A stretch of DNA of 64,000 nt from Escherichia phage DCP80. Each line of letters opens with the position of its first letter. Position 1 is the first letter of the stretch. The position numbers and the translations under genes were made by a program. The stretch is from sequence record PQ671644.1; one strand, written 5' to 3'. The notes beneath the pieces are model-generated. The model saw only the letters and a list, made by a program, of their open reading frames with translations, had not been told where the DNA came from and searched no databases. Of the stretch, positions 9,041 through 25,708 are shown piece by piece.

Positions 9041-9044
9041 ATTC

Positions 9045-10793
9045 TTGTTTGGTGAATATAAGTCCGTAAGCTATGTTCCTGGTATTGTAAAACTGATTGA
9101 TGAAATTATCGATAACTCTGTTGATGAAGCAATTCGCACCAGTTTTAAATTCGCCAATAAAATTGATGTTCAAATTAAAGGCAATAAGGTTATCGTTGAA
9201 GATAACGGACGCGGTATTCCACAAGCAATGGTTGTCGACCAGACCGGTGAACAAATACCTGGCCCTGTCGCGGCATGGACTATTCCAAAGGCCGGTGGCA
9301 ACTTCGGTGATGATGCTGAGCGTAAAACTGGCGGGATGAATGGCGTTGGTAGTAGTTTAACCAACATCTTCTCTGTAACATTTGCGGGTGCAACTTGTGA
9401 TGGTGAGAATGAAATTGTCGTACGTTGTTCTAACGGAATGGAAAATAAGAGCTGGAATAAAGTTCCCGCTTCGAAGAAAGAACATGTGAAGGCTAAGACT
9501 GGTACGGTTGTTTCCTTTATTCCCGAATTCAGCCATTTTGAAACTAATGGACTCGACGAGACTTATGACGCCATCACATTGGACCGTCTACAGACTCTTG
9601 CGGTTGTTTATCCGGATATTCAGTTTACCTTTAATGGCAAAAAGGTTGATGGTAACTTCAAGAAGTTCGCCAAGCAATTTGGAACCGAAGTTGTTATCCA
9701 GGAAACTGATACGGTATCGATGGCCTTTACGACTAGCCCGGATGGTTTCCGTCAGTTGACTTATGTCAACAACATTCATACAAAGAATGGCGGACACCAC
9801 GTTGAATGTGTTATGGATGATATCTGTGAACATCTTCAACCAGCCATTAAACGCAAATATAAAGGCATCGAGGTGACCAAGGCACGAGTTAAAGAATGTC
9901 TCACCATGCTTATGTTCATCCGCGATATGAGCAACATGCGATTTGATTCCCAGACCAAAGAGCGATTGACTTCTCCGGCTGGTGAAATTCGAAATCACAT
10001 TAAGATTGATGCTAAGAAAATCGCGCAAGCTATTCTGAAAAATGAACCGCTGATTATGCCGATTGTTGAAGCTGCATTAGCCCGTAAATTGGCTGCAGAA
10101 AAAGCAGCAGAGACTAAAGCGAATAAGAAAGCTTCGAAGGCTAAGGTACAAAAGCATATCAAAGCCAACGAATGGGGTAACGACAAACTTGAAACGACTC
10201 TATTCCTGACCGAAGGGGATTCTGCAACGGGTCCATTTATCAAGGTTCGCGACCGTGAATTGCAAGGTGCTTATCCATTACGTGGTAAGTTTAAAAACAC
10301 ATGGGGTCTGAAAGCTGTTGACGTTATGAAGAACGCTGAAGCCTTTGATGTGTGTGCAATTACTGGGTTAACGATTGGACAACCGGCCAAGAATATGAAT
10401 TACCGAAACATTGCTATCATGACAGATGCGGATGTGGATGGTGTCGGTAGTATCTATCCATCGTTATTGGCGTTTTTCAGTAACTGGCCAGAGCTGTTCC
10501 ATGAAGGACGAATTCGCTTTGTGAAAACTCCTGTTATTATTGCGCAGCTCAAAGACAAACAAGAATGGTTCTATTCTCTTCCTGACTATGAAGAAGCTAA
10601 GGATAAACTTCCGAAGCACACCATCCGATATATCAAGGGGCTTGGTTCTCTGGAAGATTCCGAGTATAAACGCGTATTGCTCGAACCAGTATTCGAAGTT
10701 GTCCAATTGCCTGATAACTGGAAAGAACTGTTCGAAATGTTATTCGGTAAAGATTCACAACAGCGTAAAGATTGGATGAATGCGACGCTATAA
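9045..10793 (+). CDS. 39: DNA topoisomerase II large subunit gp39 (fused 39/60 form), N-terminus lost in gap
   Basis: 582 aa; VPGIVKLIDEIIDNSVDEAIRT...VEDNGRGIPQ...GPVAAWTIPKAGGNFGDD...GGMNGVGSSLTNIFS (GHKL ATPase) and AIMTDADVDGVGSI (Toprim) match recalled T4 gp39/gp60. Confidence 0.85.
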   Translation: MFGEYKSVSYVPGIVKLIDEIIDNSVDEAIRTSFKFANKIDVQIKGNKVIVEDNGRGIPQAMVVDQTGEQIPGPVAAWTIPKAGGNFGDDAERKTGGMNGVGSSLTNIFSVTFAGATCDGENEIVVRCSNGMENKSWNKVPASKKEHVKAKTGTVVSFIPEFSHFETNGLDETYDAITLDRLQTLAVVYPDIQFTFNGKKVDGNFKKFAKQFGTEVVIQETDTVSMAFTTSPDGFRQLTYVNNIHTKNGGHHVECVMDDICEHLQPAIKRKYKGIEVTKARVKECLTMLMFIRDMSNMRFDSQTKERLTSPAGEIRNHIKIDAKKIAQAILKNEPLIMPIVEAALARKLAAEKAAETKANKKASKAKVQKHIKANEWGNDKLETTLFLTEGDSATGPFIKVRDRELQGAYPLRGKFKNTWGLKAVDVMKNAEAFDVCAITGLTIGQPAKNMNYRNIAIMTDADVDGVGSIYPSLLAFFSNWPELFHEGRIRFVKTPVIIAQLKDKQEWFYSLPDYEEAKDKLPKHTIRYIKGLGSLEDSEYKRVLLEPVFEVVQLPDNWKELFEMLFGKDSQQRKDWMNATL

Positions 10794-10841
10794 ATAGATG
10801 TGGGAGAATATTCTCCCGCTACTAGGAGACAATATGACTAA

Positions 10842-10986
10842 ATACTGGATTACACTCGCTACCGGTGAATATGGTTTTCTCTGGGCAGAGAAAAAGCCTT
10901 TGTTTGCAGAATTTGTAACAATCACGTGCGAAACCTGGGAAGGTGAAACTTTCATGGCGTATGGTCAAGTCTATAAAGTAGAATAA
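10842..10986 (+). CDS. small hypothetical protein
   Basis: ATG at 10842 after AGGAGA RBS; preceded by 16-bp palindrome GGGAGAATATTCTCCC at 10802-10817. Confidence 0.4.
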
Positions 10987-10991
10987 AATTT

Positions 10992-11016
10992 GGTCTCCTT
11001 CGGGAGACCTTTTTAT
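10992..11016 (+). terminator. rho-independent terminator with UUCG tetraloop
   Basis: GGTCTCC-TTCG-GGAGACC followed by TTTTTATT. Confidence 0.6.
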
Positions 11017-11064
11017 TATGTACAAGCCACAAAAATTGTGTTAAGATGTCTTTGAGGTGAAAAT

Positions 11065-11349
11065 ATGATTATGTCTGACGGAAGTTTAGTTAATCTGCAG
11101 AATGTCGCACGGTGTATTATGGAAGCAGGCCTGAGGAAGGTACAGGAGCTCCCAGATAGCGACAGGAAGCGAAGTTACTTGTTAGCTGTAAGAACAGCAG
11201 CCATGAGCATTAAGGCTGGCCAGAAGGTCCCTGAGGAGCGAATTGAAGCACTTCTTGCATTGATATACCATGACCAAGAACATAAAGCTACCATGCGTAG
11301 TATGAGAAAAATATTACAGGAGATTGGAAATGACGAACTTCAAAGTTAA
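11065..11349 (+). CDS. hypothetical protein
   Basis: 94 aa, homolog of 8569-8853. Confidence 0.5.
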   Translation: MIMSDGSLVNLQNVARCIMEAGLRKVQELPDSDRKRSYLLAVRTAAMSIKAGQKVPEERIEALLALIYHDQEHKATMRSMRKILQEIGNDELQS

Positions 11350-11533
11350 TATGGAGCTGTTTGATAAAGCTGTTCATAAAGAATACCGCGTTATCCAACG
11401 ATTTTTTGATATAAGAGAAGCTGAAGAGTTTAAAGAACGCTTCAAAGAAATCCGTATTAAAATAGCTTCAGACACCGCAACAAAGGATGAACTTCTTGAA
11501 GTTGCAGAATTAATCAAACGTAACATAAAGTGA
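11324..11533 (+). CDS. hypothetical protein
   Basis: 69 aa, homolog of 8385-8594. Confidence 0.5.
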   Translation: MEMTNFKVNMELFDKAVHKEYRVIQRFFDIREAEEFKERFKEIRIKIASDTATKDELLEVAELIKRNIK

Positions 11534-11540
11534 GAAAAAC

Positions 11541-13775
11541 ATGATTTTAGAAACTGAAAAGGAAACAATCCTTGGTAATGGTGCCAAGGCATCAGCATTC
11601 ACAATCCAGGCATCTCCAAAGGTGTTTAAGATTCTGACCAGCGACCTTTATACAAACAAGGTGCGCGCGGTTGTTCGTGAGCTGATTACCAATATGATTG
11701 ATGCTCATATGCTCAATGGCTGTCAGGATAAATTCATTGTTCAAGCTCCTGGTGAACTGGACCCACGTTTTGTGTGTCGTGACTTTGGTCCAGGTATGAG
11801 TGATTTCCAGATTCGTGGTGATGAAAATACGCCAGGTCTGTATAACAGTTTCTTTGCATCATCCAAGGCTGAATCCAATGATTTTATTGGTGGCTTCGGC
11901 TTGGGTTCTAAATCTCCGTTTAGTTATACAGAGACGTTTAGCCTGATTTCATATCATGATGGACAAGTTAATGGTTATGTCGCTTATATGGACGGTGATG
12001 GTCCACAGATTAAGCCAACCTTTAGCGAACCAATGAAACCTGGTGACCGCACAGGGATTGAAGTTGTTGTCCCGGTTGATAGTAATGATTTCGGTAAGTT
12101 CCGTTATGAGATTGCATATATCATGCGTCCATTTGCTGGACTGGCTGAAGTGCAAGGCGTAGGCGAAATTAATTACTTCCCAGAATTTGATGATTATTAT
12201 GCTCCAGCGCGTATTAATTATAGCAGTCCAGAACGTTATGGACTTTATGCAATTTATGGTGGAATTGTTTATCCGATTGGTGATGGTTACACCAAGAAAA
12301 CCTGGATGACTGCCAAAAATGATGTTGTCTTTATTAAGTTCCCAATGGGTTCGCTGGATATTGCACCTTCTCGCGAAGCGTTATCACTGGACAAACGTAC
12401 GGTCGCAAATATCGTTGAACGTATTGAAGCCCTTGATAAGAAAGTCATGGAAGATGATTGTAAGAAATGGCAGGAATCAGAATGTCTCCGCCATACATAT
12501 CGCGAATTGCAGAATCTGAATTATGAAGCTCGTAATTTTCTGAAAGCTCGTAATGTTGAAACGAAATTTACGAAATCACAATTGACCTTTAACCAGATGT
12601 ACGAAATGTTCGAGCTGGACAAAGACCTTATTAATGCCGGGGTTGTCTATGATATCTATCGCGATACTCGTCTGAAACGTCTGCGTAACGCAAGCTCAAG
12701 CTCGAACACGGCAAGTCTGACGCGCATGTTTGGTATTCAGACTGATACCTTGAACATTGTTATTGATGATGCTAAAGGGCGAATTGCGATGATTCGTGGT
12801 ATCAGTTCAATGTTGTATGATACCAGCGCGAAAGCTAAAAAGCTTATTGCATCTGGTAAAGTCCCGACTCGTCAGGGTAGTAGTTTACTGTTTGTTGACC
12901 CAACCAGCGAAATTCAAACACGGTTGATGGTTCAACTCCAGGAACGATTTAAAGGCGATACGGTTAATATCTATCGTACGTCTGAACTGACTGCCCTTGT
13001 AAAAGACTGGATTCCGGTTGCTGACCCGAAAGCGCGCGTTAAGTCAAAGACTCCATCATTGATTCGTTGGACTAAAACTAATGGTCGCTGGCAGTCTGTT
13101 GAAGAATTTACATGTGCAGCTGATGCAGAGGAAATCGATGGTTATGCTGTATTCATTAACCGCAGTAGCATTTCCCCGTTGAATCAAGAATACGGCACCA
13201 CGACCTTCGGGACCCAGACATTGTGTAAACTGGCAAACCTGTTGGAAATCAATGAATTCTGTGTTATTCGTCCACAGCTTCAGAAAAAGGTTACCAAGCT
13301 GGCGCAGTGCGATTGTCTGATTGAAGCTGCAGTCAATCGTTATGTGGAATTGATTGATGCGGTTGATGCGGACCAGTACATTGCCGCTTCAAGCCGTTCG
13401 CGTTATTATATTCCTATCCTGTCTGAATATGCAGAACTGAATTTTATGTTCAAGTATTTTTATGCAAAAGATGTTCAGAAAGATGTGAATACTGACTATG
13501 CCGAACTAATGCAGTTCAATAAGTTCTTTGCTTATAACGCATATAACAGTGGAACAGTTGATAAGACCATGCAGGAAACATTGGTCCTTTGTAATAAGAT
13601 TTATGACGACCTGACCAAAAACGCTTCGGTAACAAGCGATAAAATGGTTTTTGAATTTGAAAAGAATCACCCGATTGTTTCACACTTTTTATATAACCGT
13701 AACGCTATGTCAACTGAACAAGTACAGAACGTTGCTCAAATCATGAAGGCCGTGGAAGCGGCCAATAAGGAATAA
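11541..13775 (+). CDS. rIIA: rIIA protein (second copy)
   Basis: 744 aa, near-identical to 6143-8377 with scattered substitutions. Confidence 0.9.
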   Translation: MILETEKETILGNGAKASAFTIQASPKVFKILTSDLYTNKVRAVVRELITNMIDAHMLNGCQDKFIVQAPGELDPRFVCRDFGPGMSDFQIRGDENTPGLYNSFFASSKAESNDFIGGFGLGSKSPFSYTETFSLISYHDGQVNGYVAYMDGDGPQIKPTFSEPMKPGDRTGIEVVVPVDSNDFGKFRYEIAYIMRPFAGLAEVQGVGEINYFPEFDDYYAPARINYSSPERYGLYAIYGGIVYPIGDGYTKKTWMTAKNDVVFIKFPMGSLDIAPSREALSLDKRTVANIVERIEALDKKVMEDDCKKWQESECLRHTYRELQNLNYEARNFLKARNVETKFTKSQLTFNQMYEMFELDKDLINAGVVYDIYRDTRLKRLRNASSSSNTASLTRMFGIQTDTLNIVIDDAKGRIAMIRGISSMLYDTSAKAKKLIASGKVPTRQGSSLLFVDPTSEIQTRLMVQLQERFKGDTVNIYRTSELTALVKDWIPVADPKARVKSKTPSLIRWTKTNGRWQSVEEFTCAADAEEIDGYAVFINRSSISPLNQEYGTTTFGTQTLCKLANLLEINEFCVIRPQLQKKVTKLAQCDCLIEAAVNRYVELIDAVDADQYIAASSRSRYYIPILSEYAELNFMFKYFYAKDVQKDVNTDYAELMQFNKFFAYNAYNSGTVDKTMQETLVLCNKIYDDLTKNASVTSDKMVFEFEKNHPIVSHFLYNRNAMSTEQVQNVAQIMKAVEAANKE

Positions 13776-13776
13776 T

Positions 13777-14754
13777 ATGTTTAATATCAAATGTATGTCT
13801 AAAGCCGAACAAGAACGAGTTGTCTCTCTTTATGAATCTGGTAACTATACGCAAGACGAACTTGCACTCGGTTTCGGCGTTTCGGTTGACACCATTCGTC
13901 GCGTTTTGAAAAATGACAAAGAATCAAAATTAGCTAAAACCATTTCTGCATCACTGAAAGCCGCTGTCGGGGTGGCGATTAATGCTCCAGTGACAGTAAC
14001 AGTTGAAGCCCCGGTTGAAGCCACAATCGGTGGAAGCCGCCCGGAAATCGTATGGAATGCATCAAGTAAATTCGTTTCCATTACTGAAGGTCGTACAGTC
14101 TGGAATGCAACAAAAGACCATAAACACTTTGATGATATTATTCAGGCACTCAAAGAATCTCGTTTTGATGATGCTATTGAGTATATCTCAATCAAAGCTG
14201 CAGTACAAAAATATGTGAAAGGCGATGTGCGTATTGAAGGTGGTAGTCTGTTCTATCAGGGAATTGAACTGCGCTCTGGCCTGGTTACTCGTATCATTGA
14301 TTCAATGCAAAATGGCGAAGACTTTGAATTCTATCTGCCATTCCTTGAGAATCTCCTTGAGAACCCGAGTGAGAAAGCCGTACAGCGTTTGTTTGACTTC
14401 CTGGTTGCGAACGATATCGAAATCACCGAAGACGGCCATTTCATCGCATGGAAAATGGTTCGTGCAACCTACAAAGATTGTCACTCAAACACATTCGACA
14501 ACAGCCCTGGCCAATATGTTAAAATGCCACGCTCTCGTGTGAATGACAATGACGAACAAACTTGTTCGACTGGTCTGCACGTTTGCTCTAAAGGCTATAT
14601 CGGAAGTGGTTTTGGTCATGGTGATGGACGCATCGTATCCTGTAAAGTTCACCCGCGTGATGTTGTAAGTATCCCGGTGGATTATTCCGATAGTAAGATG
14701 AGGGTTTGCGGTTACCTGGTTCTTGAAGATGTGACCGAACGTTTCAATGATTAA
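13777..14754 (+). CDS. rIIB: rIIB protein (second copy)
   Basis: 325 aa; conserved core as in 5167-6141, N-terminal third diverged. Confidence 0.85.
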   Translation: MFNIKCMSKAEQERVVSLYESGNYTQDELALGFGVSVDTIRRVLKNDKESKLAKTISASLKAAVGVAINAPVTVTVEAPVEATIGGSRPEIVWNASSKFVSITEGRTVWNATKDHKHFDDIIQALKESRFDDAIEYISIKAAVQKYVKGDVRIEGGSLFYQGIELRSGLVTRIIDSMQNGEDFEFYLPFLENLLENPSEKAVQRLFDFLVANDIEITEDGHFIAWKMVRATYKDCHSNTFDNSPGQYVKMPRSRVNDNDEQTCSTGLHVCSKGYIGSGFGHGDGRIVSCKVHPRDVVSIPVDYSDSKMRVCGYLVLEDVTERFND

Positions 14755-15238
14755 ACAAACAATTGCTAAAGATGGCTCGGCTCGTGGTATTGTCCACGGG
14801 CTAGGTCACACGCCTGAATACATTGTATGGATTGGCATGAAAGCTCGGTGTTGCAATCCAACACATATTAGTTATTCTCGATATGGCGGTCGGGGTATCA
14901 CTGTTTGCGATGAATGGCTGCATGATTTTGAAAGATTTTATACAGATATGGGGCCACGACCCACTGACAAACATCAACTTGACCGAACAGATAACGATAA
15001 AGGGTACTCTCCCGATAACTGCAGATGGGTTAGTCCAGGCGAGAATGCTTTAAATAAGCGCCCGTATAATAACAACAAGTCTGGATTTAAAGGAGTCTCG
15101 TTTGATAAACGAGCTTTGAATAAACCATGGCGAGCCACTATTATGCGAAATAAAAAACAAATTCAAGTCGGAGCTTTTGCAACTCCAGAAGAAGCAAATG
15201 AAGCTCGATTAAAATATATGGAAGAACACAATGTCTAA
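14747..15238 (+). mobile_element. free-standing HNH homing endonuclease with AP2-type DNA-binding domain
   Basis: 163 aa; HNH-like DRTDNDKGYSPDNCRWVSPGEN followed by AP2-like SGFKGVSFDKRALNKPWRATIMRNKKQIQVGAFATPEEANEARLKYMEEH; start overlaps rIIB stop (ATGATTAA); absent from the other copy. Confidence 0.7.
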
Positions 15239-15440
15239 AGAAATGTTAGGTTTCCAAGCACGTGTAGTTGAAGAACATGACCAGCTGGTTTTGAAAATTA
15301 ATGCTCTTGAAGAATTTATTAAGGGCGGAGTTTTTGAAACTCTCGATGCTCGTCAACAAGGTCTTTTGATTGCCCAGTTAGATGCAATGGGTGCATATGC
15401 TCATATACTGGCAACTCGTATCTCTTATTTTGGTGAATAA
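15231..15440 (+). CDS. hypothetical protein
   Basis: 69 aa, homolog of 4936-5133; start overlaps HNH stop. Confidence 0.5.
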   Translation: MSKEMLGFQARVVEEHDQLVLKINALEEFIKGGVFETLDARQQGLLIAQLDAMGAYAHILATRISYFGE

Positions 15441-15443
15441 ATT

Positions 15444-15713
15444 ATGATTAAGCATTTCAATGTGTCAGACCGTGACATCAAAGTTTCAAATCTCCGGGGT
15501 CATCATTATGCGGGAATAGTTTACTGCGGTAAGCTCATCAAGCATGAAGGTGATGTTCACTATGGTTGGTTGGAATGTGATGAAGTAGTTGTTGGGGAAT
15601 TCCCTGACCCGAATTCTGATACATTTGATGCTAATGACCGTTTGTATTATGGCGAGCTTCACATCCGTGGAATCGTCGGTATCGATGAGGTCGTAAATGA
15701 TTCAGAAGAGTAA
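15444..15713 (+). CDS. hypothetical protein
   Basis: 89 aa, homolog of 4663-4932. Confidence 0.5.
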   Translation: MIKHFNVSDRDIKVSNLRGHHYAGIVYCGKLIKHEGDVHYGWLECDEVVVGEFPDPNSDTFDANDRLYYGELHIRGIVGIDEVVNDSEE

Positions 15714-16290
15714 AACCTGGGAGCATTTGAAAAAGATGCCCTCCTTTCTTTATACGAAGGAAGACTTAACCCCCGAATCCCTACAAAAGATTGTAGACAC
15801 TGCCAGATATTCATTGCGTAAAGACCCAGGTCAGGACCGTGAGCAAGTCATGCAAAGATGTATGGTGGCCACAATGGCTGAACAAGCTATTGCTAAATGG
15901 ACCTCCGGTTTTTTATGTGGCGGTGATGAAGATTACGATAATCCTTATTCCTTTGCATTTGATGTAGTTTCGAAGGAAGGGGTGAGAATCGAAGTCAAGA
16001 CCCACCAGTCTGGGTCCAAATGGATATCCGTGCATACTGGCCACCAGGGCGATTATCCACATGGTTACGGGATTAATCTTGGTCCTTTTATGCAACACAA
16101 GCTTGCTGACCTTATGATTATGCTCGATGTAAAAGAGACTCTCAAAGGTTATAGATTTAAACCAAAATTCCTTGCTGGACCCGGTGCTTTCGTTCCTGAG
16201 TCTGGTCTTGTGCAGAAGTCACAAGGGGATGGCTGGTACCTCCGTTCTTGTTCAGAAGAAAAATTTCCCTATCACCGGTTTACAAGCTGA
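15697..16290 (+). CDS. hypothetical protein (197 aa)
   Basis: Homolog of 4086-4679. Confidence 0.55.
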   Translation: MIQKSKTWEHLKKMPSFLYTKEDLTPESLQKIVDTARYSLRKDPGQDREQVMQRCMVATMAEQAIAKWTSGFLCGGDEDYDNPYSFAFDVVSKEGVRIEVKTHQSGSKWISVHTGHQGDYPHGYGINLGPFMQHKLADLMIMLDVKETLKGYRFKPKFLAGPGAFVPESGLVQKSQGDGWYLRSCSEEKFPYHRFTS

Positions 16291-16337
16291 ACCAACTGTG
16301 TAATAATGTCCTCATACCAACAAATAAGGACATTATC

Positions 16338-16613
16338 ATGGAACACGTTACTACTCACAACATCAAACAAATTCTTATCCAAGCACTCAAAAACAACAAC
16401 ATCAATTTTCCAACCCATGAAATTTTTGATGTGGTATTCAACGAAGTCCAGGGTCAAGTTGCATATTATGACGTTATCGTTTATCTTTCAGAATTTGAAG
16501 TCTACCATCTGACTGAAATTGCTTTCTATCTCTATCGTGGGACTGCAGATTTTACTGGGGTCGTGAATGCAGTTGGCGCATATAAAGAAGTTAAAGAGCA
16601 AATGCACAATTAA
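16338..16613 (+). CDS. hypothetical protein
   Basis: Probable start MEHVTTHN after AAGGA RBS; homolog of 3763-4038. Confidence 0.45.
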   Translation: MEHVTTHNIKQILIQALKNNNINFPTHEIFDVVFNEVQGQVAYYDVIVYLSEFEVYHLTEIAFYLYRGTADFTGVVNAVGAYKEVKEQMHN

Positions 16614-16672
16614 TTAAAAAGTAGTGTACATCAGTATGGAGTCAGTGCATAATGATTCCATACTGAGTTACC
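16612..16672 (+). promoter_or_regulatory. early promoter / stem-loop cassette (PeSL-like)
   Basis: TGTACA 16625-16630, 17-nt spacer, CATAAT 16648-16653; CAGTATGGA 16632-16640 pairs with TCCATACTG 16657-16665. Confidence 0.45.
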
Positions 16673-16688
16673 AACCTGGAGAAACAAA

Positions 16689-16952
16689 ATGAAATTTAAA
16701 TTTTATTATATTAAGCATAAAGTTACTGGGGAGTTTATTGCATTTACAACTTCATCCAATAATCAAGGTGATACTTTTACTTCATTGTTCTTATCTAGAT
16801 GGGATTCAGACCAGCCTTATTTGTCCACAAAAGAGCATCTTCAACGTATGGCGAAGGGCGAGCTAAACGATTCTTGGGATAATATTGTGAATAATTGTAT
16901 CAAGAAAGCTATCCAAGAAAATCAACTTGAAATCATTGAGGTGGAATTGTGA
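16689..16952 (+). CDS. hypothetical protein, YYxKHKVTG family paralog (copy-2-specific)
   Basis: 87 aa MKFKFYYIKHKVTG...; tandem paralog of the next gene; not present at the equivalent site in copy 1. Confidence 0.5.
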   Translation: MKFKFYYIKHKVTGEFIAFTTSSNNQGDTFTSLFLSRWDSDQPYLSTKEHLQRMAKGELNDSWDNIVNNCIKKAIQENQLEIIEVEL

Positions 16953-17215
16953 ATATTAAATTATATTACGCCAAGCACAAAGTTACAGGTATGGTTGTTG
17001 CTGCTATGTATGACGCGTCAGGCGATGGTGATGATGTTATTACAGAGTTATCTCTTTCTGATTGTAAATTTCTTCGCCCGTTGGTTGCATCAAAGCGTGA
17101 TTTAAAAAAGCTTATTGATGGTAAGCTGGACAATATTGATGGTATAGATATTTTTTATGACCTCCGCGTCGCATTGTCTGATGGATTGATTGAAATCAAA
17201 GAGGTGATATTTTGA
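16949..17215 (+). CDS. hypothetical protein, YYxKHKVTG family
   Basis: 88 aa, homolog of 3252-3518. Confidence 0.5.
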   Translation: MNIKLYYAKHKVTGMVVAAMYDASGDGDDVITELSLSDCKFLRPLVASKRDLKKLIDGKLDNIDGIDIFYDLRVALSDGLIEIKEVIF

Positions 17216-17304
17216 GCAGCAAAACCTGGTGTCTTATCTGGATGTTGTGTATCCCAGTAATTTGCGTTTGTTTTAGTTTATTATTAATGAAACTTGCATA
17301 AAGA

Positions 17305-17332
17305 GTGTACATCTCCGGTGGTTGTAGTATAA
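17305..17332 (+). promoter_or_regulatory. early-type promoter
   Basis: GTGTACAT, 17-nt spacer, TATAAT; mirror of the copy-1 element near 3130-3160. Confidence 0.4.
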
Positions 17333-17486
17333 TGAACCTATCAACTACTGGAGATGATTATGAAAAAGTTACTTAAAGCCATTTGGAACATGTTTATACT
17401 GTTTGTTGTCCTGAGCATTTTCCCAATTGTTTTTATGATTGACCATGTACGTGTTTACTTTAACTATTTCTTTTGAGGATAATACT

Positions 17487-17633
17487 ATGATAGTTATGAA
17501 AAAGTTTAAAGAATATCATTGCTATGAATGTGGCAAAAAGATTGATTCTATTCATTCATTAAACGTCTTTTCTTTTGATAATTTAAACTATGCACACATT
17601 TGGTGCCTTCGTGGAATGACTAAATTTAACTGA
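17487..17633 (+). CDS. small zinc-ribbon-like protein (copy-2-specific cassette)
   Basis: 48 aa MIVMKKFKEYHCYECGKK...HIWC (CxxC...HxxC spacing); flanked by duplicated GAGGATAATA(C/T)TATG junction. Confidence 0.4.
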   Translation: MIVMKKFKEYHCYECGKKIDSIHSLNVFSFDNLNYAHIWCLRGMTKFN

Positions 17634-17643
17634 GGATAATATT

Positions 17644-17790
17644 ATGAATTACAATTCACACTTTCAGAAATCCAATCGCCGCTTTGACTTTATGTTCAAG
17701 TTTATTGTGGCAATGATTATCCTGATTTTCATTGGTGCCATTGCAATGATTGGTTTCCAGGTCTGGATTGCTGCTGAAGTATTCACACAA
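17644..17790 (+). CDS. small membrane protein, 3' end lost in gap
   Basis: MNYNSHFQKSNRRFDFMFKF..., homolog of 2773-2979. Confidence 0.45.
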
Positions 17791-17800
17791 NNNNNNNNNN
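17791..17800. other. assembly gap (N-run)
   Basis: 10 Ns; gene content changes abruptly across it. Confidence 0.95.
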
Positions 17801-17831
17801 TTTACAATTGAGTTAACTCCCAAGGATTAAT

Positions 17832-18143
17832 ATGCAAGCTCCAGATATTTCTCAACTGACCGATAAGCAGATTGAAGAAGCACAGGAACGTCTCGAAGAA
17901 GCGAACGCACTTGAAGCACGCAGTCAAGCAGCGAAGATTCTGAAAAAGAATGCTCGTGAAATTGCACGACTGAATAAGCATGCTCAAGGGGCAGTGCTGG
18001 AAAACAATTTTGAAGCATACAAATATGCTTTAGTTAAACTGCGTGGAATTTACCGCCAACCAGTTACGGAAGACCTGATTAAGTTGATGTGGGAAACTAC
18101 TCGCAAACAAATTTGGGAAATCGTAAATGGCATTAGTAAATAA
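17832..18143 (+). CDS. hypothetical protein
   Basis: 103-aa ORF upstream of gene 47. Confidence 0.45.
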   Translation: MQAPDISQLTDKQIEEAQERLEEANALEARSQAAKILKKNAREIARLNKHAQGAVLENNFEAYKYALVKLRGIYRQPVTEDLIKLMWETTRKQIWEIVNGISK

Positions 18144-18333
18144 ACCGTTTAAGCGGCTTCGTGTAGGGGCCGCTTTCAGATTTCGCTCATATGGTGATAT
18201 CTGTATCAAGCAGACCGAAACCGAATGTAAGCTCCTTGGCCCTTATGGTGTTCCAAAAGGTATTGTTAAAATTGAGCCGACATCCAAAGTTTGGGTGGAT
18301 TCACACCAACTTAAGAAATGGTGGCAACGATGA
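18127..18333 (+). CDS. hypothetical protein
   Basis: 68-aa ORF, basic. Confidence 0.4.
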   Translation: MALVNKPFKRLRVGAAFRFRSYGDICIKQTETECKLLGPYGVPKGIVKIEPTSKVWVDSHQLKKWWQR

Positions 18334-18390
18334 TAACATGGACAGCAGGCTAATGAAAGACGAATACGAAAAAGTTTAAGAGGTTGTATG

Positions 18391-18564
18391 AATGACGAAT
18401 TCGATGGATTTTGATAAGATTAAATCTGACAAAAATGAGATGTTGCTTAAATTTGAAGCCGCTCGTATTAAAGCAGAAAATGAAGGTACTATTACCTATA
18501 AGCCTATCAAGTTCAGGTCTTCTCATGAACCTCTGTATGGTGTATTAATTGGAAAGGAAGCCTA
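18391..18564 (+). CDS. small hypothetical protein
   Basis: 57-aa ORF translated by eye, ends inside terminator loop. Confidence 0.3.
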
Positions 18565-18578
18565 GTGCTTCCTTTTTT
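18556..18578 (+). terminator. rho-independent terminator
   Basis: GGAAGC-CTAGT-GCTTCC followed by TTTTTT. Confidence 0.55.
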
Positions 18579-18762
18579 GCTTTATATTCGGGATGATAAA
18601 ATGAACCAACTGAGGAGAACATATGGAATTATTTTTAGGATATGTCGTGCTATTCATGGCATTCTATACATTCACACGAGCTTGTTGGATAGGATTCTTT
18701 TCCACTCCTGACGGGTTCATTTCAATAATTTTATTTTGCATTGCGATAACGGTGCTTGGCTT

Positions 18763-19782
18763 ATGAAAATTTTAAATTTAGGTGATTGGCACTTGGGTGT
18801 CAAAGCTGACGACCCATGGGCTCAAAACATTCAACGCGATGGTATTTTACAGGCGATTGCGTATTCCAAAGCGAATGGGATTAAAGTCTGGATTCAATAT
18901 GGCGATATTTTTGACGTCCGTAAGGCCGTAACGCATAAGACGATGGAATTCAGCCGTGAGATTATGGAACTCCTTCGTGAAGCAGGAATTACTATGCACA
19001 CGATAGTCGGGAACCATGACATGAATCTGAAGAATAAGATTCATCCTAATGCTATCACTGAACTCCTGAATAAGTATGACCATGTTAAAATCTACGACAA
19101 GCCAACGACTGTTGATTTTGACGGTTGTCAGATTGATATGATTCCATGGATGTGTGACGAGAACGCAACTGACATTCACCAACATATCAAAACTTCTGGT
19201 GCTGAATATTGCATCGGTCACTGGGAATTAACCGGGTTTTATTTCTATAAAGGATTGAAATCCCACGGACTTGAGCCTGATTTCCTTAAGAAGTACAAGC
19301 AAGTTTGGTCTGGTCACTTCCACACAATTTCAGAAGCTGCGAACGTTAAGTACATAGGAACACCATGGACATTAACAGCAGGTGATGAGAACGACCCACG
19401 CGGGTTCTGGGAATTTGATACCGAAACCGAAGAGATGAAATTTATTCCGAATGAAACCACCTGGCATCGGAAGATTTTTTATCCAAACGAAACTATTAAC
19501 TACGACGACTTCAAAGACTTATCAGTCCGTGTTATTGTAGAAAAAGTCGATAAAGACCTGACCAAGTTCGAATCCGAATTAGAAAAGCGTGTGCATGAAT
19601 TGCGTGTTGTCAATAAGGTTGATAACAGTGTTGATACGACTGACTCCGAAGAAGAGTTAGACATAAAACGCTTAACTGATATGATGGCAGAATATATTGA
19701 TGCATTACCTGACACCAATGAGAAAGAATCAAAAGCTCTTAAAGCATTGGCCAACAAATTATATCTTGAGGTGCAACCGTGA
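18763..19782 (+). CDS. 47: recombination endonuclease subunit gp47 (Mre11-like)
   Basis: MKILNLGDWHLGVKADD...IQYGDIFDVRKA...HTIVGNHD...GHWELTGFYFYKGLKSHGLEPDFLKKYKQVWSGHFHTISEAANVKYIGTPWTLTAGDENDPRGFW matches recalled T4 gp47; track ORF starts at upstream TTG. Confidence 0.85.
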   Translation: MKILNLGDWHLGVKADDPWAQNIQRDGILQAIAYSKANGIKVWIQYGDIFDVRKAVTHKTMEFSREIMELLREAGITMHTIVGNHDMNLKNKIHPNAITELLNKYDHVKIYDKPTTVDFDGCQIDMIPWMCDENATDIHQHIKTSGAEYCIGHWELTGFYFYKGLKSHGLEPDFLKKYKQVWSGHFHTISEAANVKYIGTPWTLTAGDENDPRGFWEFDTETEEMKFIPNETTWHRKIFYPNETINYDDFKDLSVRVIVEKVDKDLTKFESELEKRVHELRVVNKVDNSVDTTDSEEELDIKRLTDMMAEYIDALPDTNEKESKALKALANKLYLEVQP

Positions 19783-20042
19783 AACTTTATGATTTTAATG
19801 AAGCGGGGCTTGAACATATCCGCGAATGTGATGTGGTTGACGACGATAATCAACCGAATACTATTAAGTATTGGTTTGAAGCTATCACTGACCGGGAAAC
19901 CGGTCAACTTATCAAAGTCTATGTAGTCACCGATTGGGCCGTAGAATTTAGTTTTAATGTAATGGAAGATGATACTCCAGAAACATTAATTCATATGGCT
20001 GAATCATGCATCAAGGATGCTTATAATGATGAAAATGTATAA
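19779..20042 (+). CDS. hypothetical protein
   Basis: 87-aa ORF between 47 and 46, overlapping stop/start. Confidence 0.45.
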   Translation: MKLYDFNEAGLEHIRECDVVDDDNQPNTIKYWFEAITDRETGQLIKVYVVTDWAVEFSFNVMEDDTPETLIHMAESCIKDAYNDENV

Positions 20043-20237
20043 ACATGATTTTCATATTGGCGATGGCTGGTTCGGTAATGTAGAATGGGACGTGGATGGT
20101 TCTTGGTATACCGGAACTATGTATGTCACTTCTGAATATTCTGAAGGTGTTTCATGGGCCATGGAACTTGACGACGTGTTTGCTTCTTCCGAAGAAATGC
20201 TAGAATATGCTGAACAAACAATTCGTGAGAACAATAC

Positions 20238-21920
20238 ATGAAAACGTTTAAGCTAAAGAAAGTAACGTATAAAAATATTATGTCTGTAGGCCAGCAGCCT
20301 ATTACAATCCAACTTGATAAGGTCCAAAAGACCTTAGTCACTGGTAAAAATGGCGCTGGTAAATCGACATTCCTTGAAGCTGTTACTTTTGCTTTATTTG
20401 GTAAGCCTTTTCGTGATGTTAAGAAAGGGCAATTAATTAACTCAAGTAACAAGAAAGACCTTTTGGTCGAACTGTGGATGGAATATGATGGAAAAGAATA
20501 CTATATCAAGCGCGGGCAAAAACCCAACGTTTTTGAAATCTCTTGTGGCGGTGAACGTCTTGATGAATCTGCCAGCAGTAAAGACTTCCAAGCGGAATTT
20601 GAACAGCTCATCGGAATGTCCTATGCGAGCTTCAAACAGATTGTCGTACTCGGCACAGCTGGATATACCCCTTTTATGGGCCTATCCACTCCTGCAAGAA
20701 GAAAACTTGTCGAAGACCTTTTAGAGGTTTCTGTACTGGCCGATATGGATAAGCTGAACAAATCTCTTATCCGTGAAGTCAATAGTCAAATCCAGGTGAT
20801 GGATGTGCAGCATGACGGGATTGTTCAACAGATTAAAATCTATCAGGACAACGAAGACCGTCAAAGAAAATTATCAGGCGATAATCTGTTGCGACTGCAA
20901 ACGATGTATGATGAACTTGCCACAGAAGCACGTGGAATCAAGGCAACTATCGAAGAAGCAACGACAAGACTGACCGAGATAATCTTGGGAGAAGACCCTG
21001 AGCACGAACTCACAAAGTTAAAGCAGGAATCATTCCTGATTAAATCGAAGATTGACGATTATCGAAAGGTTGTTGGTCTGTACGAGAAAGGTGGTTGTTG
21101 TCAGACCTGTGCTAGTCAGTTGCATCCAGGAGACCCTATTGTCGCCAGGATTGAGTCAAAGATTGAAGAATGTAATGCATCGGCTGATAAGCATAAAGCT
21201 CGCCAGAATGCTGTTCAGGAGCAATTTGATGCGTATACCAAGGCAAGACAAAACCAGCGTACAATAGCTCAAGACATTCAAACCAAGAAACAAACCTTAG
21301 TCCAGACTGTCGAAAAAGCTAAAAAGGTTAAAGCATTAATCGAGCAAGCCAAGTCAGAATTCATCGACCATGCAGCAGACATTAAAATGCTTCAAGACCA
21401 GCTTGATAAAATAGTCAAACAGAAATCTGACCTTGTGATGGAAAAATATCAACGTGGCATCCTAACGGATATGTTGAAAGATTCCGGTATCAAAGGTGCG
21501 ATTATTAAGAAATATATTCCTATCTTTAATAAGCAGATAAACGCTTACCTTAAAGTTATGGAAGCTGATTATAGTTTTACGTTAGATGAAGAGTTCAACG
21601 AAACGATTAAATCTCGTGGACGTGAAGACTTCAGCTATGCATCATTTAGCCAGGGTGAAAAAGCTCGTATCGATATTGCATTGCTGTTTACATGGCGTGA
21701 TATTGCTGCGAAAGTATCTGGTGTTAATATTAACACCTTGATTCTGGATGAAGTTTTTGACTCGGCCACCGATGTAGAGGGTGTTAAAGCAATTGCTACC
21801 ATCCTGAACAAATTGGAAGACACCAACATCTTTATTATCAGTCACCGAGACCATGACCCGGAAGCATACGGGCAACATCTCCAGATGAAAAAAGTTGGTC
21901 GATTCACTGTTATGGAATAA
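20238..21920 (+). CDS. 46: recombination endonuclease subunit gp46 (Rad50/SbcC-like ATPase)
   Basis: 560 aa; Walker A GKNGAGKST, ...GKPFRDVKKGQLINSSNKK..., C-terminal FSQGEKARIDIALLFTWRDIA...LILDEVFD match recalled T4 gp46. Confidence 0.9.
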   Translation: MKTFKLKKVTYKNIMSVGQQPITIQLDKVQKTLVTGKNGAGKSTFLEAVTFALFGKPFRDVKKGQLINSSNKKDLLVELWMEYDGKEYYIKRGQKPNVFEISCGGERLDESASSKDFQAEFEQLIGMSYASFKQIVVLGTAGYTPFMGLSTPARRKLVEDLLEVSVLADMDKLNKSLIREVNSQIQVMDVQHDGIVQQIKIYQDNEDRQRKLSGDNLLRLQTMYDELATEARGIKATIEEATTRLTEIILGEDPEHELTKLKQESFLIKSKIDDYRKVVGLYEKGGCCQTCASQLHPGDPIVARIESKIEECNASADKHKARQNAVQEQFDAYTKARQNQRTIAQDIQTKKQTLVQTVEKAKKVKALIEQAKSEFIDHAADIKMLQDQLDKIVKQKSDLVMEKYQRGILTDMLKDSGIKGAIIKKYIPIFNKQINAYLKVMEADYSFTLDEEFNETIKSRGREDFSYASFSQGEKARIDIALLFTWRDIAAKVSGVNINTLILDEVFDSATDVEGVKAIATILNKLEDTNIFIISHRDHDPEAYGQHLQMKKVGRFTVME

Positions 21921-22146
21921 TGCTTTAAACAAGGATGTTATAATAGAGGCTATTATGGCTGACTTCTTAACCGGGCAGCATTTACTGGCTGTCCCTGAAA
22001 TTAAACGGTATGTGTTAGTTAATACCTTTTCGAAAGATGAACACCTTGTTACTGAACGTGACTTACAAAACGCTTTCGGTGAAGAATATGTTAAAATAAT
22101 CGCGAACAGACACAATGCCTGGTTCGCATATGAATACTTTGATTAA
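21895..22146 (+). CDS. hypothetical protein
   Basis: 83-aa ORF between 46 and 45. Confidence 0.4.
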   Translation: MVDSLLWNNALNKDVIIEAIMADFLTGQHLLAVPEIKRYVLVNTFSKDEHLVTERDLQNAFGEEYVKIIANRHNAWFAYEYFD

Positions 22147-22578
22147 TTGATAATGAATAGAGAGAATATTATGAACAACGTAACTGCTAAAGATATCCAA
22201 GTTAAAACCATCCGCACCGACGCTAACCCACATAACCAAAACCGCATCCGCAAATCCTGGGTCCTGGCGTGTGATGAAGTATCTGCCACCCGTCTGCAGT
22301 CTCTGCCGCAAGAAGTTAAATTCATGTTGTATGGTGTTATCGATACTGATGTATCTGATAAGTGGATTGAACTGATGCAACGTCATTACAACGATTCACT
22401 GGCTGCTGGTGCTAAACTGGTTATCGACCGTGACGGTTCCGAACGTCTTGAAGATGATTACTGTGTTAACTCTGACGACCATCTGGTGCAAGCTGGTTCT
22501 ATTATTGCTGCGCAACTTCCAGAGTATATTGAATCTCTTCCGGAAGCTATCCACAAACAAATGGCAGTTGTTGCTTAA
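22147..22578 (+). CDS. hypothetical protein, RpbA-like by position only
   Basis: 143-aa ORF in the position T4 rpbA occupies upstream of gene 45; sequence identity not verified. Confidence 0.4.
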   Translation: MIMNRENIMNNVTAKDIQVKTIRTDANPHNQNRIRKSWVLACDEVSATRLQSLPQEVKFMLYGVIDTDVSDKWIELMQRHYNDSLAAGAKLVIDRDGSERLEDDYCVNSDDHLVQAGSIIAAQLPEYIESLPEAIHKQMAVVA

Positions 22579-22608
22579 TTAATTTTGATTTGAATAAAAG
22601 GTAATTAA

Positions 22609-23304
22609 ATGAAATTCTCTAAAGACACTATCGCAGTTTTGAAAAACTTCACCTCCATCTACTCTGGCATTATGCTTAAACCAGGCAATACCATCCTGAC
22701 TCGTTCTGTAACTGGAGCGTCATATGGCGAATCCGAAATCAATGATACAATTGACTTTGAAGCTGCGATTTATGACCTGAACGGCTTCTTAAGTATCCTG
22801 GGCCTGGTAACTGACCAAGCTGAAGTATCTCTGGCTGAAGACGCATCAAATATCATTATCAAAGACCAACGTTCAACGATTCACTGGCCTGCGGCTGACC
22901 CGAGCACTATCGTGTTCCCTGCTAAGAAGATTCCTTTCCCGGTAGCTAAGGTTATCTTCGACCTGAAAGGCAGTGACCTGCAGCAGCTTCTGCGTGTGGC
23001 TGGTGGTTTGTCTCTGGACACTTTTGCAATCACCAACAAAGACGGTAAGATTGTTATCCATGGTTATAACCAGCTCGAAGATAAAGAATTAGCGCGTCCA
23101 TTGTATTCCCTGGTGTGTGGTGATTACGAAGGCGATGCAGCGTTTAAATTTATCATTAACAAACTGAACATGAAAATGATTCCGGCTGATTACCGTGTTA
23201 TGCTTTGGGCAAAAGATGATAAATTTGCTACGAAGTTTGAAGGCACACAAGCAAGCTATGTGATTGCAATGGAACAAGGCTCTAGCCACGAATTCCAAGA
23301 TTAA
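22609..23304 (+). CDS. 45: sliding clamp gp45
   Basis: 231 aa; LKNFTSIYSGIMLK...IDFEAAIYDLNGFL...IHWPAADPSTIVFP...KIPFPVA...DLQQLLRV...WAKDDKFATKFEG matches recalled T4 gp45. Confidence 0.9.
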   Translation: MKFSKDTIAVLKNFTSIYSGIMLKPGNTILTRSVTGASYGESEINDTIDFEAAIYDLNGFLSILGLVTDQAEVSLAEDASNIIIKDQRSTIHWPAADPSTIVFPAKKIPFPVAKVIFDLKGSDLQQLLRVAGGLSLDTFAITNKDGKIVIHGYNQLEDKELARPLYSLVCGDYEGDAAFKFIINKLNMKMIPADYRVMLWAKDDKFATKFEGTQASYVIAMEQGSSHEFQD

Positions 23305-23307
23305 TAA

Positions 23308-23325
23308 ATGGGGCTTCGGCCCCAT
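23308..23325 (+). promoter_or_regulatory. C(UUCG)G tetraloop RNA hairpin between genes 45 and 44
   Basis: ATGGGGC-TTCG-GCCCCAT, no U-run. Confidence 0.45.
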
Positions 23326-23360
23326 GGAGTACAAAGTAGAAACTAATATGAGGAAAATAT

Positions 23361-24320
23361 ATGTTAACGGTTAATGACAAAGAATTCATGTGGGAACAAA
23401 AATACCGCCCAGGTACATTATCAGAGTGTATTCTCCCGGCTCATGATAAAGAAACATTAGAGGCGATTGTTAAAAAAGGTTTGATTCCTAACTTGATTCT
23501 GGTCAGTAGTTCCCCTGGTACTGGTAAGACAACAGTTGCAAAAGCTATGTGCGCAGATACGAATTCTGATATGCTGTTTGTTAACGGCTCCGATTGCCGA
23601 ATTGACTTTGTGCGTAATGAATTGACTCGCTTTGCATCATCCAAATCAATCGAAGGTCGCCGTAAGGTAATTGTTATCGATGAGTTCGACCGTGCAGGTC
23701 TGGCAGAATCACAACGGCATCTTCGTAGCTTTATGGAAGCTTATTCAAGCAACTGTTCAATCATTATGACCGCGAACAATATTGATGGCATCATCACTCC
23801 GTTGCAGTCTCGTTGTCGCGTCATTAAGTTTGGTGAAGCAACTCCGGCTGACCAGACTACCATGATGAAAGAGATGATTCATCGTGCAGTCGCGATATGT
23901 AAAAACGAAGGCGTTGAAATCGAAGACCTGAAAGTTGTTGCTGCTTTGGTTAAGCATAACTTCCCGGACCTGCGTAAGACAATTAATGAGCTTGACCGTT
24001 ACTCTGCAAAGGGTGTTATCGATTCCGGTATTCTAAGCATCGTGACAAACAATCGCACGCCAATTGATGATGTGATTGATGCCCTTAAGGACCGTAACTT
24101 TAAAGTTCTCCGTGGTCTGGCTCCTAAGCATGCAAATGATTATTCAAGCTTCATTGCAAAGCTGGCTGATGAAATGTATGGCAAACTGACTGGTGCAAGT
24201 ATTATCCGCATGTATGAGATTGTAGGTGAGAATAATCAGTATCATGGCATTGCAGCCAATACCGAAGTTCACTTGACTTATCTGTTTGCTCAACTGGCTG
24301 GGGAAATGAAATGGCTGTAA
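23361..24320 (+). CDS. 44: clamp loader large subunit gp44 (AAA+)
   Basis: 319 aa; WEQKYRP, Walker A SPGTGKTT, Walker B VIVIDEFDR, sensor SRC; synteny 45-44-62. Confidence 0.9.
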   Translation: MLTVNDKEFMWEQKYRPGTLSECILPAHDKETLEAIVKKGLIPNLILVSSSPGTGKTTVAKAMCADTNSDMLFVNGSDCRIDFVRNELTRFASSKSIEGRRKVIVIDEFDRAGLAESQRHLRSFMEAYSSNCSIIMTANNIDGIITPLQSRCRVIKFGEATPADQTTMMKEMIHRAVAICKNEGVEIEDLKVVAALVKHNFPDLRKTINELDRYSAKGVIDSGILSIVTNNRTPIDDVIDALKDRNFKVLRGLAPKHANDYSSFIAKLADEMYGKLTGASIIRMYEIVGENNQYHGIAANTEVHLTYLFAQLAGEMKWL

Positions 24321-24742
24321 GTCTCTTTGATGATGACGTTCAATTAAACGAACATGAGGTTGCGTGGAAATCACGCGACTTTAACAAAATTCAGGAATTG
24401 TCCGATTCATACAAAGAGAAAGCAGAAAATGAATTGTTCGCGATTCTTAACGACATAACCGTTAGCAAAAAACCACGGAACCTGATTCAATCGGAAAACT
24501 ACAATAAATTCTGGCTGGACAATGCCTTGAGTCAACATGTCGATTGCATCATGCAGGTGAACGTGATGAACTTAATCGGTTCTGGATTAACAGACCAACA
24601 GCATTATAATTATTTGCTGCATGCGGTTCCACAAGGCAAGCGTTATGGCAAATGGGCGAAGGCTGAACCGGATGTAGTCAGCGTCCAGCTTGTGTTAAAG
24701 CTTTTGATGAAATATTATACAATTAATGCAGATGATGCTTTG
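24311..24742 (+). CDS. 62: clamp loader small subunit gp62, 3' end lost in gap
   Basis: MAVSLFDDDVQLNEHEVAW...KEKAENE...MNLIGSGL...NYLLHAVPQGKRYGKWAK matches recalled T4 gp62; ATG overlaps gp44 stop. Confidence 0.8.
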
Positions 24743-24760
24743 NNNNNNNNNNNNNNNNNN
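24743..24760. other. assembly gap (N-run)
   Basis: 18 Ns; strand and gene content switch across it. Confidence 0.95.
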
Positions 24761-24910
24761 ACGAATCTGACGTTTAGTCGGTCGCGCAACGTAAGCTTGT
24801 GTAGTTACTCGTCCAAAAACACCATACTTAGGCGAAGGAGTATCAATAAAGACTTCCCACTGGCAAGAGTAGCTATATATTGCTTTAGAGAATTGGGTCA
24901 AAACAAACAT
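24761..24910 (-). CDS. hypothetical protein, 3' end lost in gap
   Basis: MFVLTQFSKAIYSYS...; ATG embedded in TTAATATG junction with upstream gene. Confidence 0.4.
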
Positions 24911-24911
24911 A

Positions 24912-25271: not shown

Positions 25272-25272
25272 A

Positions 25273-25707: not shown

Positions 25708-25708
25708 T

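Follow-up and report, generated by a model that had tools for sequence, protein, structure and literature searches.

The question raised by this locus is how a single small gene comes to stand between two neighbors in one version of a phage region and to be missing from the other, with the same stop codon, SD and start codon at both of its ends. The two versions were found in a window of 64,000 nucleotides (the whole stretch of DNA that was analyzed) from sequence record PQ671644.1 of Escherichia phage DCP80, and the sequence-only reading had taken them for a copy 1 and a copy 2 of the same region, of which only the second had received an insert.

Make-up of the window and the ndd.4–ndd.3 locus

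The window contains ten runs of N (8994-9040, 17791-17800, 24743-24760, 30887-30940, 36511-36520, 41760-41800, 47031-47080, 52286-52300, 57005-57040, and 61506-61540). Given that every run ends at a multiple of 20 (i.e., 9040, 17800, 24760, and so on), the window consists of eleven short contigs that were N-padded and concatenated. When the window was compared with itself, whole contigs paired at 95-98% identity, many of them in opposite orientation. The complete genome of Escherichia phage MN01 (Gaprivervirus, Tevenvirinae) served as the reference for contig mapping. Contig 1-8993 was mapped to MN01 123625-133265 on the minus strand and contig 9041-17790 to MN01 121759-130389 on the plus strand, while contigs 17801-24742 and 47081-52285 were both mapped to ~91-98 kb and contigs 24761-30886 and 41801-47030 both to ~103-108.8 kb of MN01. 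These three contig pairs overlap in MN01 coordinates, and their identity to MN01 is 93-96%. Because the rIIB-denB-ndd region is single-copy in related phage genomes and the contig pairs overlap on MN01, the supposed duplicates are one locus in two strains. The window is made of contigs of two co-assembled Gaprivervirus (T4-like) strains that are ~96% identical, and the difference at the locus is thus a presence/absence polymorphism between co-assembled strains. It should be noted that the same caution applies to the other paired, near-identical regions of the window, in which differences between "copies" are strain polymorphisms. Contig 52301-57004, with one tail-fiber-like ORF (1329 aa) and one Gly-rich adhesin-like ORF (266 aa), matches MN01 over only 109 bp at the nucleotide level, which fits a host-range module swap.

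From annotated relatives, the site can be placed at the ndd.4|ndd.3 junction, within the variable region rIIB-denB-ndd(-gp52). The small membrane ORF and the MNYNSHF gene between which the insert had been placed are indeed its neighbors, and they can now be named. The former is ndd.4 (17354-17476, plus strand; phrog_3098; PF26889, Phage_T4_Y16N), which encodes a small hydrophobic (membrane) protein of 38-40 aa in annotated relatives, and the latter is ndd.3 (PF23906, DUF7248), whose product is annotated as "periplasmic protein." Only the 5' part of ndd.3 (17644-17790, plus strand) is found in the carrier strain, as 17790 is the contig end, 150 bp from the insert. Full-length ndd.3 of 68 aa is found in the other strain (2773-2979, minus strand; DUF7248, E 3e-25).

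A PeSL-like early promoter with its stem-loop precedes ndd.4 (17306-17356, plus strand). The promoter TGTACA-16 nt-TATAAT at 17306-17333 matches at 10 of 12 positions, and the hairpin at 17310-17356 (dG -25.8 kcal/mol, z -5.55) carries the -10 box in its loop. This is the only promoter candidate for the unit of ndd.4, the small ORF and ndd.3. The cassette is without a promoter or hairpin of its own, no terminator-like site was found in 16600-17790, and an Rfam scan of 16000-18300 returned sub-threshold chance matches only. The cassette would share a transcript with its two neighbors ndd.4 and ndd.3, and its translation would rely on an SD copy of its own (GAGGA, 17476-17480, 6-nt spacer).

Beyond this locus, the two strains differ at several other places. 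In one strain, rIIB and denB.1 are separated by a 163-aa HNH-AP2 homing-endonuclease-like ORF (14747-15238; phrog_374, E 8e-59), at whose position a terminator hairpin rich in GC (GGGGCTTCGGCCCC) is found in the other (14741-15242, plus strand, vs. 5134-5174, minus strand); the ORF is found in MN01 and absent from VR26. Directly after a conserved PeSL-like promoter and hairpin (16625-16690), one ORF is replaced by another (16695-16949, plus strand, vs. 3518-3678, minus strand): in one strain an ORF of 87 aa that is paralogous to the gene after it (both phrog_2390), and in the other an unrelated ORF of ~51 aa. At 20034-20234 (plus strand, vs. ~51239-51247, minus strand), one strain has a small ORF (MYKHDFHIGDGW..., ~65-74 aa) that the other lacks; it is flanked by the gene 47-side ORF and by gene 46 and has end repeats of only ~6 nt. 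In addition, intergenic repeats of 55-85 nt with 79-87% identity are dispersed over the window (3682-3766, 16610-16691, 26974-27040, 32234-32286, 41021-41074, 43885-43951, 61787-61870, and 62376-62454). These include the promoter/hairpin element before the phrog_2390 genes, gave many short matches across the MN01 genome and probably constitute the PeSL family of this phage. Both strains also have 45-nt direct repeats that are 93-96% identical and 361 bp apart in minus-strand genes (24908-24952 and 25269-25313; 41815-41859 and 42176-42220). Each repeat comprises a gene's final ~11 codons (...DQIFNAFMKRG), the stop codon, the SD and the next start codon; the pair is a longer gene-end-plus-junction repeat around a gene-sized unit.

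The 157-bp unit and the zinc-finger protein that it encodes

The strain-specific unit, which consists of the cassette body and one repeat copy, is located at 17491-17647 on the plus strand and is absent from the other strain. The insert is discrete as first described, but its length is 157 bp rather than the ~160 bp estimated earlier. Motif TGAGGATAATAYTATGA is found on both sides of the unit. The left junction repeat at 17474-17490 (TGAGGATAATAcTATGA / TGAGGATAATACTATGA; plus strand) comprises the ndd.4 stop codon TGA, the SD GAGGA, a 6-nt spacer and the start of the small ORF, while the right one at 17631-17647 (TGAGGATAATAtTATGA / TGAGGATAATATTATGA; plus strand) comprises the stop codon of the small ORF, the SD and the ndd.3 start. 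The two copies are identical at 16 of 17 positions and 157 bp apart from start to start. At both junctions the stop codon overlaps the next SD, and ndd.3 and the small ORF have the same translation initiation region. The earlier observations that one sequence occurs at both insert ends and that the RBS and start codon of the insert duplicate those of the downstream gene are thus borne out, with a repeat that is slightly longer (17 nt) than had been stated and that gives the insert its own copy of the stop/SD/start junction.

The other strain likewise lacks the insert as described: it has a single copy of the junction (2976-2992, minus strand), at which ndd.4 is followed directly by ndd.3. In the self-BLAST, 2833-2992 corresponds to 17790-17631 and 2976-3517 to 17490-16950, and the overlap of the two pieces is the 17-nt repeat. 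An alignment of six sequences showed a discrete, clean indel, with no remnant of a decayed ORF in the empty allele; it gave no sign of a continuous region in which the ORF is merely disrupted in the empty strain. No terminal inverted repeats of the unit were found, no inverted repeat or stem-loop was found at 17474-17490 or 17631-17647, and promoter-like matches at both junctions reached at most 9 of 12 positions, no better than those in shuffled sequences. The GC content of the cassette (0.279) is at the 1.4th percentile of the 140-nt windows in the contig; ndd.4 has a similar GC content (0.293), and the low value is therefore not diagnostic.

In both strands of the 64 kb, the motif is matched without mismatch three times, each time at the ndd.4/ndd.3 locus. 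With up to 3 mismatches allowed, 16 matches are found in the window against 0.4 expected, all of which share the form of a stop codon overlapping the SD, an AT-rich spacer and ATG. The junction is not private to the insert but a recurrent type in the genome and the common boundary of every cassette at this site. The remaining instances in the window deviate at ≥2 positions and the pair of the cassette at one. By these counts, the junction type is common in the genome, yet the two copies at the cassette are far closer to each other than to other instances.

Two further resemblances in the vicinity were noticed. The 5' end of ndd.4 at 17353-17370 (GATGATTATGAAAAAGTT, then ACTTAAAG) resembles 17489-17506 around the second ATG of the small ORF (GATAGTTATGAAAAAGTT, then TAAAG) at 16 of 18 nt, or at 18 of 21 with one 3-nt gap (p ~0.001 vs. 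shuffles), which could be an older recombination trace at gene starts or a common preference for an MKK start. An origin of the 3' tail of the small ORF from the 3' end of ndd.4, suggested by a common TTTAACT, did not reach significance (p 0.22).

The 48-aa CxxC...HxxC ORF reported for one version only is read directly from the sequence at 17487-17633 (MIVMKKFKEYHCYECGKKIDSIHSLNVFSFDNLNYAHIWCLRGMTKFN; plus strand; ATG at 17487, TGA at 17631-17633), with CYEC and HIWC as its two Cys/His pairs. It matches the profile of phrog_25572 (E 3.4e-31, 107.7 bits), with residues 4-48 aligned to profile positions 1-45 of 45. A second in-frame ATG at 17496 corresponds to the start of the PHROG profile (M4) and of the Kanagawavirus homologues, but it lies 15 nt from the SD, and the first ATG at 17487 is thus the likelier start here. 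In alignments across three phage families, C12, Y13, C15, G16, I19, D31, L33, N34, Y35, H37 and C40 are invariant, and the putative metal ligands C12, C15, H37 and C40 are invariant in the 8 and in the 7 sequences aligned (Straboviridae, Schitoviridae, Alcyoneusvirus). Profile match and conservation mark the ORF as a genuine gene and a member of PHROG 25572, and we conclude from sequence and model that its product is a predicted single-site Cys2-His-Cys zinc finger, a kind that usually mediates macromolecular contacts.

An AlphaFold2 model from a 7-sequence alignment (pLDDT 70) has a CxxC knuckle hairpin, two more strands and a C-terminal helix that begins at H37. The predicted fold is a treble clef, with the N-terminal knuckle in a beta-hairpin and the last two ligands at the helix start. 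In this model of limited quality (pLDDT 70), H37 and C40 are at the strand-helix transition and no second knuckle is seen, and the Pfam zinc-ribbon models stayed below threshold. Thus, of the earlier label "zinc-ribbon-like," the Cys2-His-Cys site holds, whereas the model, as far as its quality allows, points to a treble clef instead of a ribbon. The structural neighbors of the model are the ClpX zinc-binding domain, PHD-like, RING and LIM domains and CsfB. The predicted arrangement, a CxxC knuckle in a beta-hairpin and HxxC at a helix start within ~40 residues, is like that of treble-clef fingers such as the N-terminal zinc-binding domain of ClpX (2ds5), PHD-like/RING halves and CsfB/Gin (5n7y). 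Treble-clef zinc-finger domains of the ClpX, PHD-like, RING and CsfB type mediate protein-protein contacts.

In searches of BFVD, the confident matches were family members only, followed by weak RING/PHD-like ones. Pfam and NCBIfam searches gave nothing above threshold: NinD, Zn_ribbon_DnaG, UPF0167 and DUF2175 of Pfam scored 13-15.3 bits against gathering cut-offs of 24.9-35. Lambda NinD (PF17466) and the CHC2 zinc ribbon of DnaG (PF01807) are also small phage/primase zinc modules with a CxxC...(H/C)xxC spacing, but this likeness is weak, as the HMM scores of 14-15 bits are far under the gathering thresholds of 25-35 bits. A C2H2 zinc finger was rejected, since the PDB sequence matches cover just the YxCxECGK knuckle and not the second ligand pair; the HxxC pair follows 18-21 residues downstream, whereas a C2H2 finger would need Hx3-5H after ~12.

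With the 48-aa sequence alone as query, a word-indexed protein search gave just one relative, and an exhaustive HMMER search added only PEi20, besides repetitive eukaryote-like zinc-finger noise. A profile search led to 6 relatives and an IMG/VR scan to 8 loci, mostly in genomes already known. By these searches the family is a small one. VR26 gp154 and MN01_00222 are the same protein as that of the window (98% aa identity), and together with RaK2 gp343 and PEi20 ORF-294 (45-59%) they form one family (BFVD A0A0A7HH61) with an invariant CYECG...D[DN]LNY[AF]HxxC core, found at the same locus in Tevenvirinae. Its members are annotated merely as hypothetical proteins, and the proteins of RaK2 and the N4-like Gamaleyaviruses have it as one module of a longer chain. 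In the literature on VR26/VR20/VR7, Gaprivervirus and ndd.3/ndd.4, nothing was found about the zinc-finger ORF. The protein would most likely be an early-acting, zinc-stabilized module that binds a host or phage macromolecule, and its gene is dispensable and strain-variable.

Alleles at the site and the direction of change

The cassette is also present in related phages, namely MN01 and VR26, which are the only 2 carriers among ~31 distinct related phages in the GenBank phage collection. In VR26, gp154 is annotated as "similar to RaK2 gp343." In the same collection, the site is empty in ~17 distinct phages (including SP18, VR7 and VR25), while about ten related phages diverge downstream of ndd.4. 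Two ENA metagenome contigs also have the order ndd.4|zinc-finger ORF|ndd.3, and MN01, VR26 and these two contigs share the arrangement at 98-99% nucleotide identity. Both ENA contigs (L012, 935-1072; L013, 1431-1568) have a 1-nt insertion near the 3' end of the cassette, by which the tail after HxxCL reads KWND instead of RGMTKFN, and an extra C in the left junction spacer, with the zinc-finger core intact. The frame-shifted tail (...CLKWND) indicates that the C-terminal tail is not constrained. The arrangement thus appears already in public phage genomes, as unannotated hypothetical genes.

In VR20, 212 and RZ, an unrelated 48-aa ORF (MGNRIYK...) is found at exactly the same site, beginning from the same ATG and ending in ACTGAGGAAAATATTATG. 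The junctions flanking it in phage 212 match at 26 of 28 nt and reach into coding sequence. With an unrelated ORF in this position in other phages, the site behaves as a cassette slot. Other arrangements include ndd.4|ndd.1 in VR5, ndd.4|41-aa TM ORF|zinc-finger ORF|ndd.3|ndd in the Kanagawaviruses PEi20 and KLB31, and ndd.4|39-aa ORF|zinc-finger ORF|ndd in the Kanagawaviruses IME523 and CIP9. The Kanagawavirus zinc-finger gene has different, overlapping junctions without repeats. In N4-like Gamaleyaviruses and the jumbo phage RaK2, a protein of 75-104 aa carries the zinc module as its C-terminal part. In the Gamaleyaviruses (L008, 1363-1590; L009, 1303-1617) it is fused to the early-region protein gp2.2, whose N-terminal part belongs to phrog_7840, and in RaK2 (L007, 1902-2132) it follows a 40-aa N-terminal extension; the homologues of RaK2 and St11Ph5 match phrog_25572, too. 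Judging from these fusions, the zinc module behaves both as a portable domain and as a gene in its own right.

The word "inserted" in the sequence-only reading implied a direction that the data do not fix. The syntenic homologues of the Kanagawaviruses diverge in step with their flanks: the amino acid identity between the window and PEi20 is 68% for ndd.4, 51% for the zinc-finger ORF and 42% for ndd.3. Such co-diverging homologues in another genus make ancestral presence followed by repeat-mediated deletion equally possible.

The flanks of the cassette give some indication of where an exchange may have taken place. Taken as a whole, the carrier contig resembles phage 212 most (96%, as a single piece that extends to 17465), and phage 212 holds the other cassette. 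The cassette itself differs from those of MN01 and VR26 at 1 of 140 nt. The 143 nt to the right of the cassette are identical to those of SP18, whose site is empty, and 1 nt off those of the empty strain in the window; they differ from all other carriers at 5-7 sites, the first at 17661. The contrast between 1/140 in the cassette and 5-7/143 in the right flank, which is weak at roughly p 0.06-0.1, would put a crossover somewhere from 17611 to 17660, and the right repeat falls within this interval. As ndd.4 is near-invariant in all phages, the left side gives no breakpoint resolution. A strong reading of recent transfer from the difference between 99% identity in the cassette and 88-92% in the left flank was downgraded, since the left divergence is all upstream of 17323. 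On the sequences compared, we treat the presence/absence as a reversible exchange at the junction.

Exchange at the junction, its rivals and known systems

We consider it reasonably probable that the unit is a promoter-less cassette in an early operon, which is exchanged by short-homology recombination at the 17-nt junction copies. In this operon, the PeSL promoter at 17306-17333 would drive ndd.4, ndd.3 and ndd.1, with an extra gene between ndd.4 and ndd.3 in one strain. The cassette for the 45-48-aa finger would be of a "plug-and-play" kind: its left end is the resident ndd.4 TGA-GAGGA-6 nt-ATG, and its right end supplies the junction for ndd.3. Loss would proceed by recombination between the 17-nt junctions, with excision of a small circle or deletion, and gain by integration or patch transfer from a co-infecting carrier via the phage's own homologous-recombination and replication machinery. 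The logic would be that of PeSL-flanked ORFans, with the SD/start part of the element only. These steps are deduced from end-point sequences. Seventeen nucleotides are short for homologous recombination, and an identical scar would result from replication slippage or from other illegitimate events at microhomology. The repeat-free junctions of the Kanagawavirus gene also speak against this route. None of the other gene-sized strain indels that were compared is bounded by a stop/SD/start junction repeat, and the junction route is therefore not general but one of several.

The zinc-finger gene may instead be an ancestral resident that predates the split between Gaprivervirus and Kanagawavirus and that most Gapriverviruses, including the strain of contig 1-8993, lost by deletion between the repeats; the extra junction copy would then be the substrate for loss rather than an insertion scar. 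We hold this to be possible, although on balance unlikely. Homologues are syntenic in all the Kanagawavirus genomes examined (PEi20, KLB31, IME523, CIP9), the identity of the zinc-finger ORF to PEi20 falls between those of ndd.4 and ndd.3, as co-divergence predicts, and a precise deletion between 17-nt direct repeats would give exactly the observed empty site. Deletions in rII of T4 end in short direct repeats. However, the cassette is found in just 2 of the ~31 related phages, its carriers have different backbones and almost identical cassettes, and the unrelated ORF in the same slot and with the same junction in other phages demands gain events, too. As the Kanagawavirus junctions are not repeats, the repeat must also have arisen later if the gene was ancestral, which counts against this explanation.

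It is very improbable that selection toward one optimal stop/SD/spacer/ATG made the two junctions alike and that the indel arose from an unrelated event. The over-representation of the motif class at gene boundaries (16 vs. 0.4 expected) is what such convergence would produce, but the other instances are off by ≥2 positions and these two by one, the end-points of the indel coincide with the repeat to the base, and the repeat around the other cassette in phage 212 extends over 26/28 nt into coding sequence. Still less credible is an autonomous mobile element, in which a transposase would have produced the repeat as a target-site duplication, or insertion driven by a homing endonuclease would have done so. 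Direct repeats do surround a discrete insert, and the strain-specific HNH-AP2 endonuclease gene, also found in MN01, lies 2.2 kb upstream on the same contig; against this, the 157-bp unit encodes the 48-aa finger alone and has no detectable terminal inverted repeats, what looks "duplicated" is a functional stop/SD/start, found genome-wide and also at the borders of an unrelated cassette, and VR26 has the cassette without the HNH gene. Mis-assembly at the repeated junction or contig joining, for which the concatenation of the window from short mixed-sample contigs and the position of the insert near a contig end might speak, is effectively refuted by an intact, conserved ORF and by the same ndd.4|zinc-finger ORF|ndd.3 order (98-99% nt) in a pair of finished phage genomes as well as in two metagenome contigs of independent origin.

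An extension of junction exchange, which we regard as doubtful, is that the site after ndd.4 is a dedicated, integrase-free capture site for circulating circles or patches of ~150 bp with promoter-less ORFs (the zinc finger, the MGNRIYK ORF and possibly ndd.3), captured at the 17-28-nt junction, with the finger as a host-specific counter-defense or takeover factor that is patchy by host-strain selection. The cassette is an ordinary example of the gain and loss of tiny accessory genes and fits the known modular shuffling in the hyperplastic regions of T4-like phages. The locus is a clean case of accessory-gene turnover resolved to the base and leaves current understanding unchanged. As the zinc-finger family is found in three unrelated phage groups that infect Enterobacterales and has no function assigned, it is a reasonable small candidate for host-interaction screens.

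Two known systems are close enough for comparison. Similar to integron gene cassettes, the units at this site are promoter-less single ORFs at a fixed position behind a resident promoter, are bounded by a short recombination sequence and may be exchanged as circles. Unlike integrons, there is no integrase and no attC-like folded site, and recombination would rest on homology and the general machinery of the phage. The other system is that of the PeSL-flanked ORFans, whose flanking copies recombine to release the ORFan as a mini-circle, the crossovers mapping to the stretch from the SD/ATG to the -10 box; the reverse reaction was proposed as their route of insertion (Arbiol et al., 2010, PMC2839356), and this work was later extended (Comeau et al., 2014, PMC4122927). 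Like the PeSL and ORFan cassettes of T4-type phages, the zinc-finger cassette is a small ORFan in a hyperplastic region that is present in some and absent from other close relatives, its repeat ends in an SD and a start codon, and one copy of the repeat remains at the empty site. A true PeSL is located 130 bp upstream of the cassette, before ndd.4. In contrast to a PeSL, the repeat of the cassette is the 17-nt stop/SD/start only and is without -35/-10 boxes or a stem-loop, two of the features that define the element; moreover, its left copy is at the 3' end of a coding gene, and the promoter-less cassette rides an existing operon. This suggests that a crossover may need no more than a bare stop/SD/start junction, and the PeSL model would be extended accordingly. 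Taken together, we read the cassette as resembling PeSL-mediated shuffling minus the promoter and the stem-loop.
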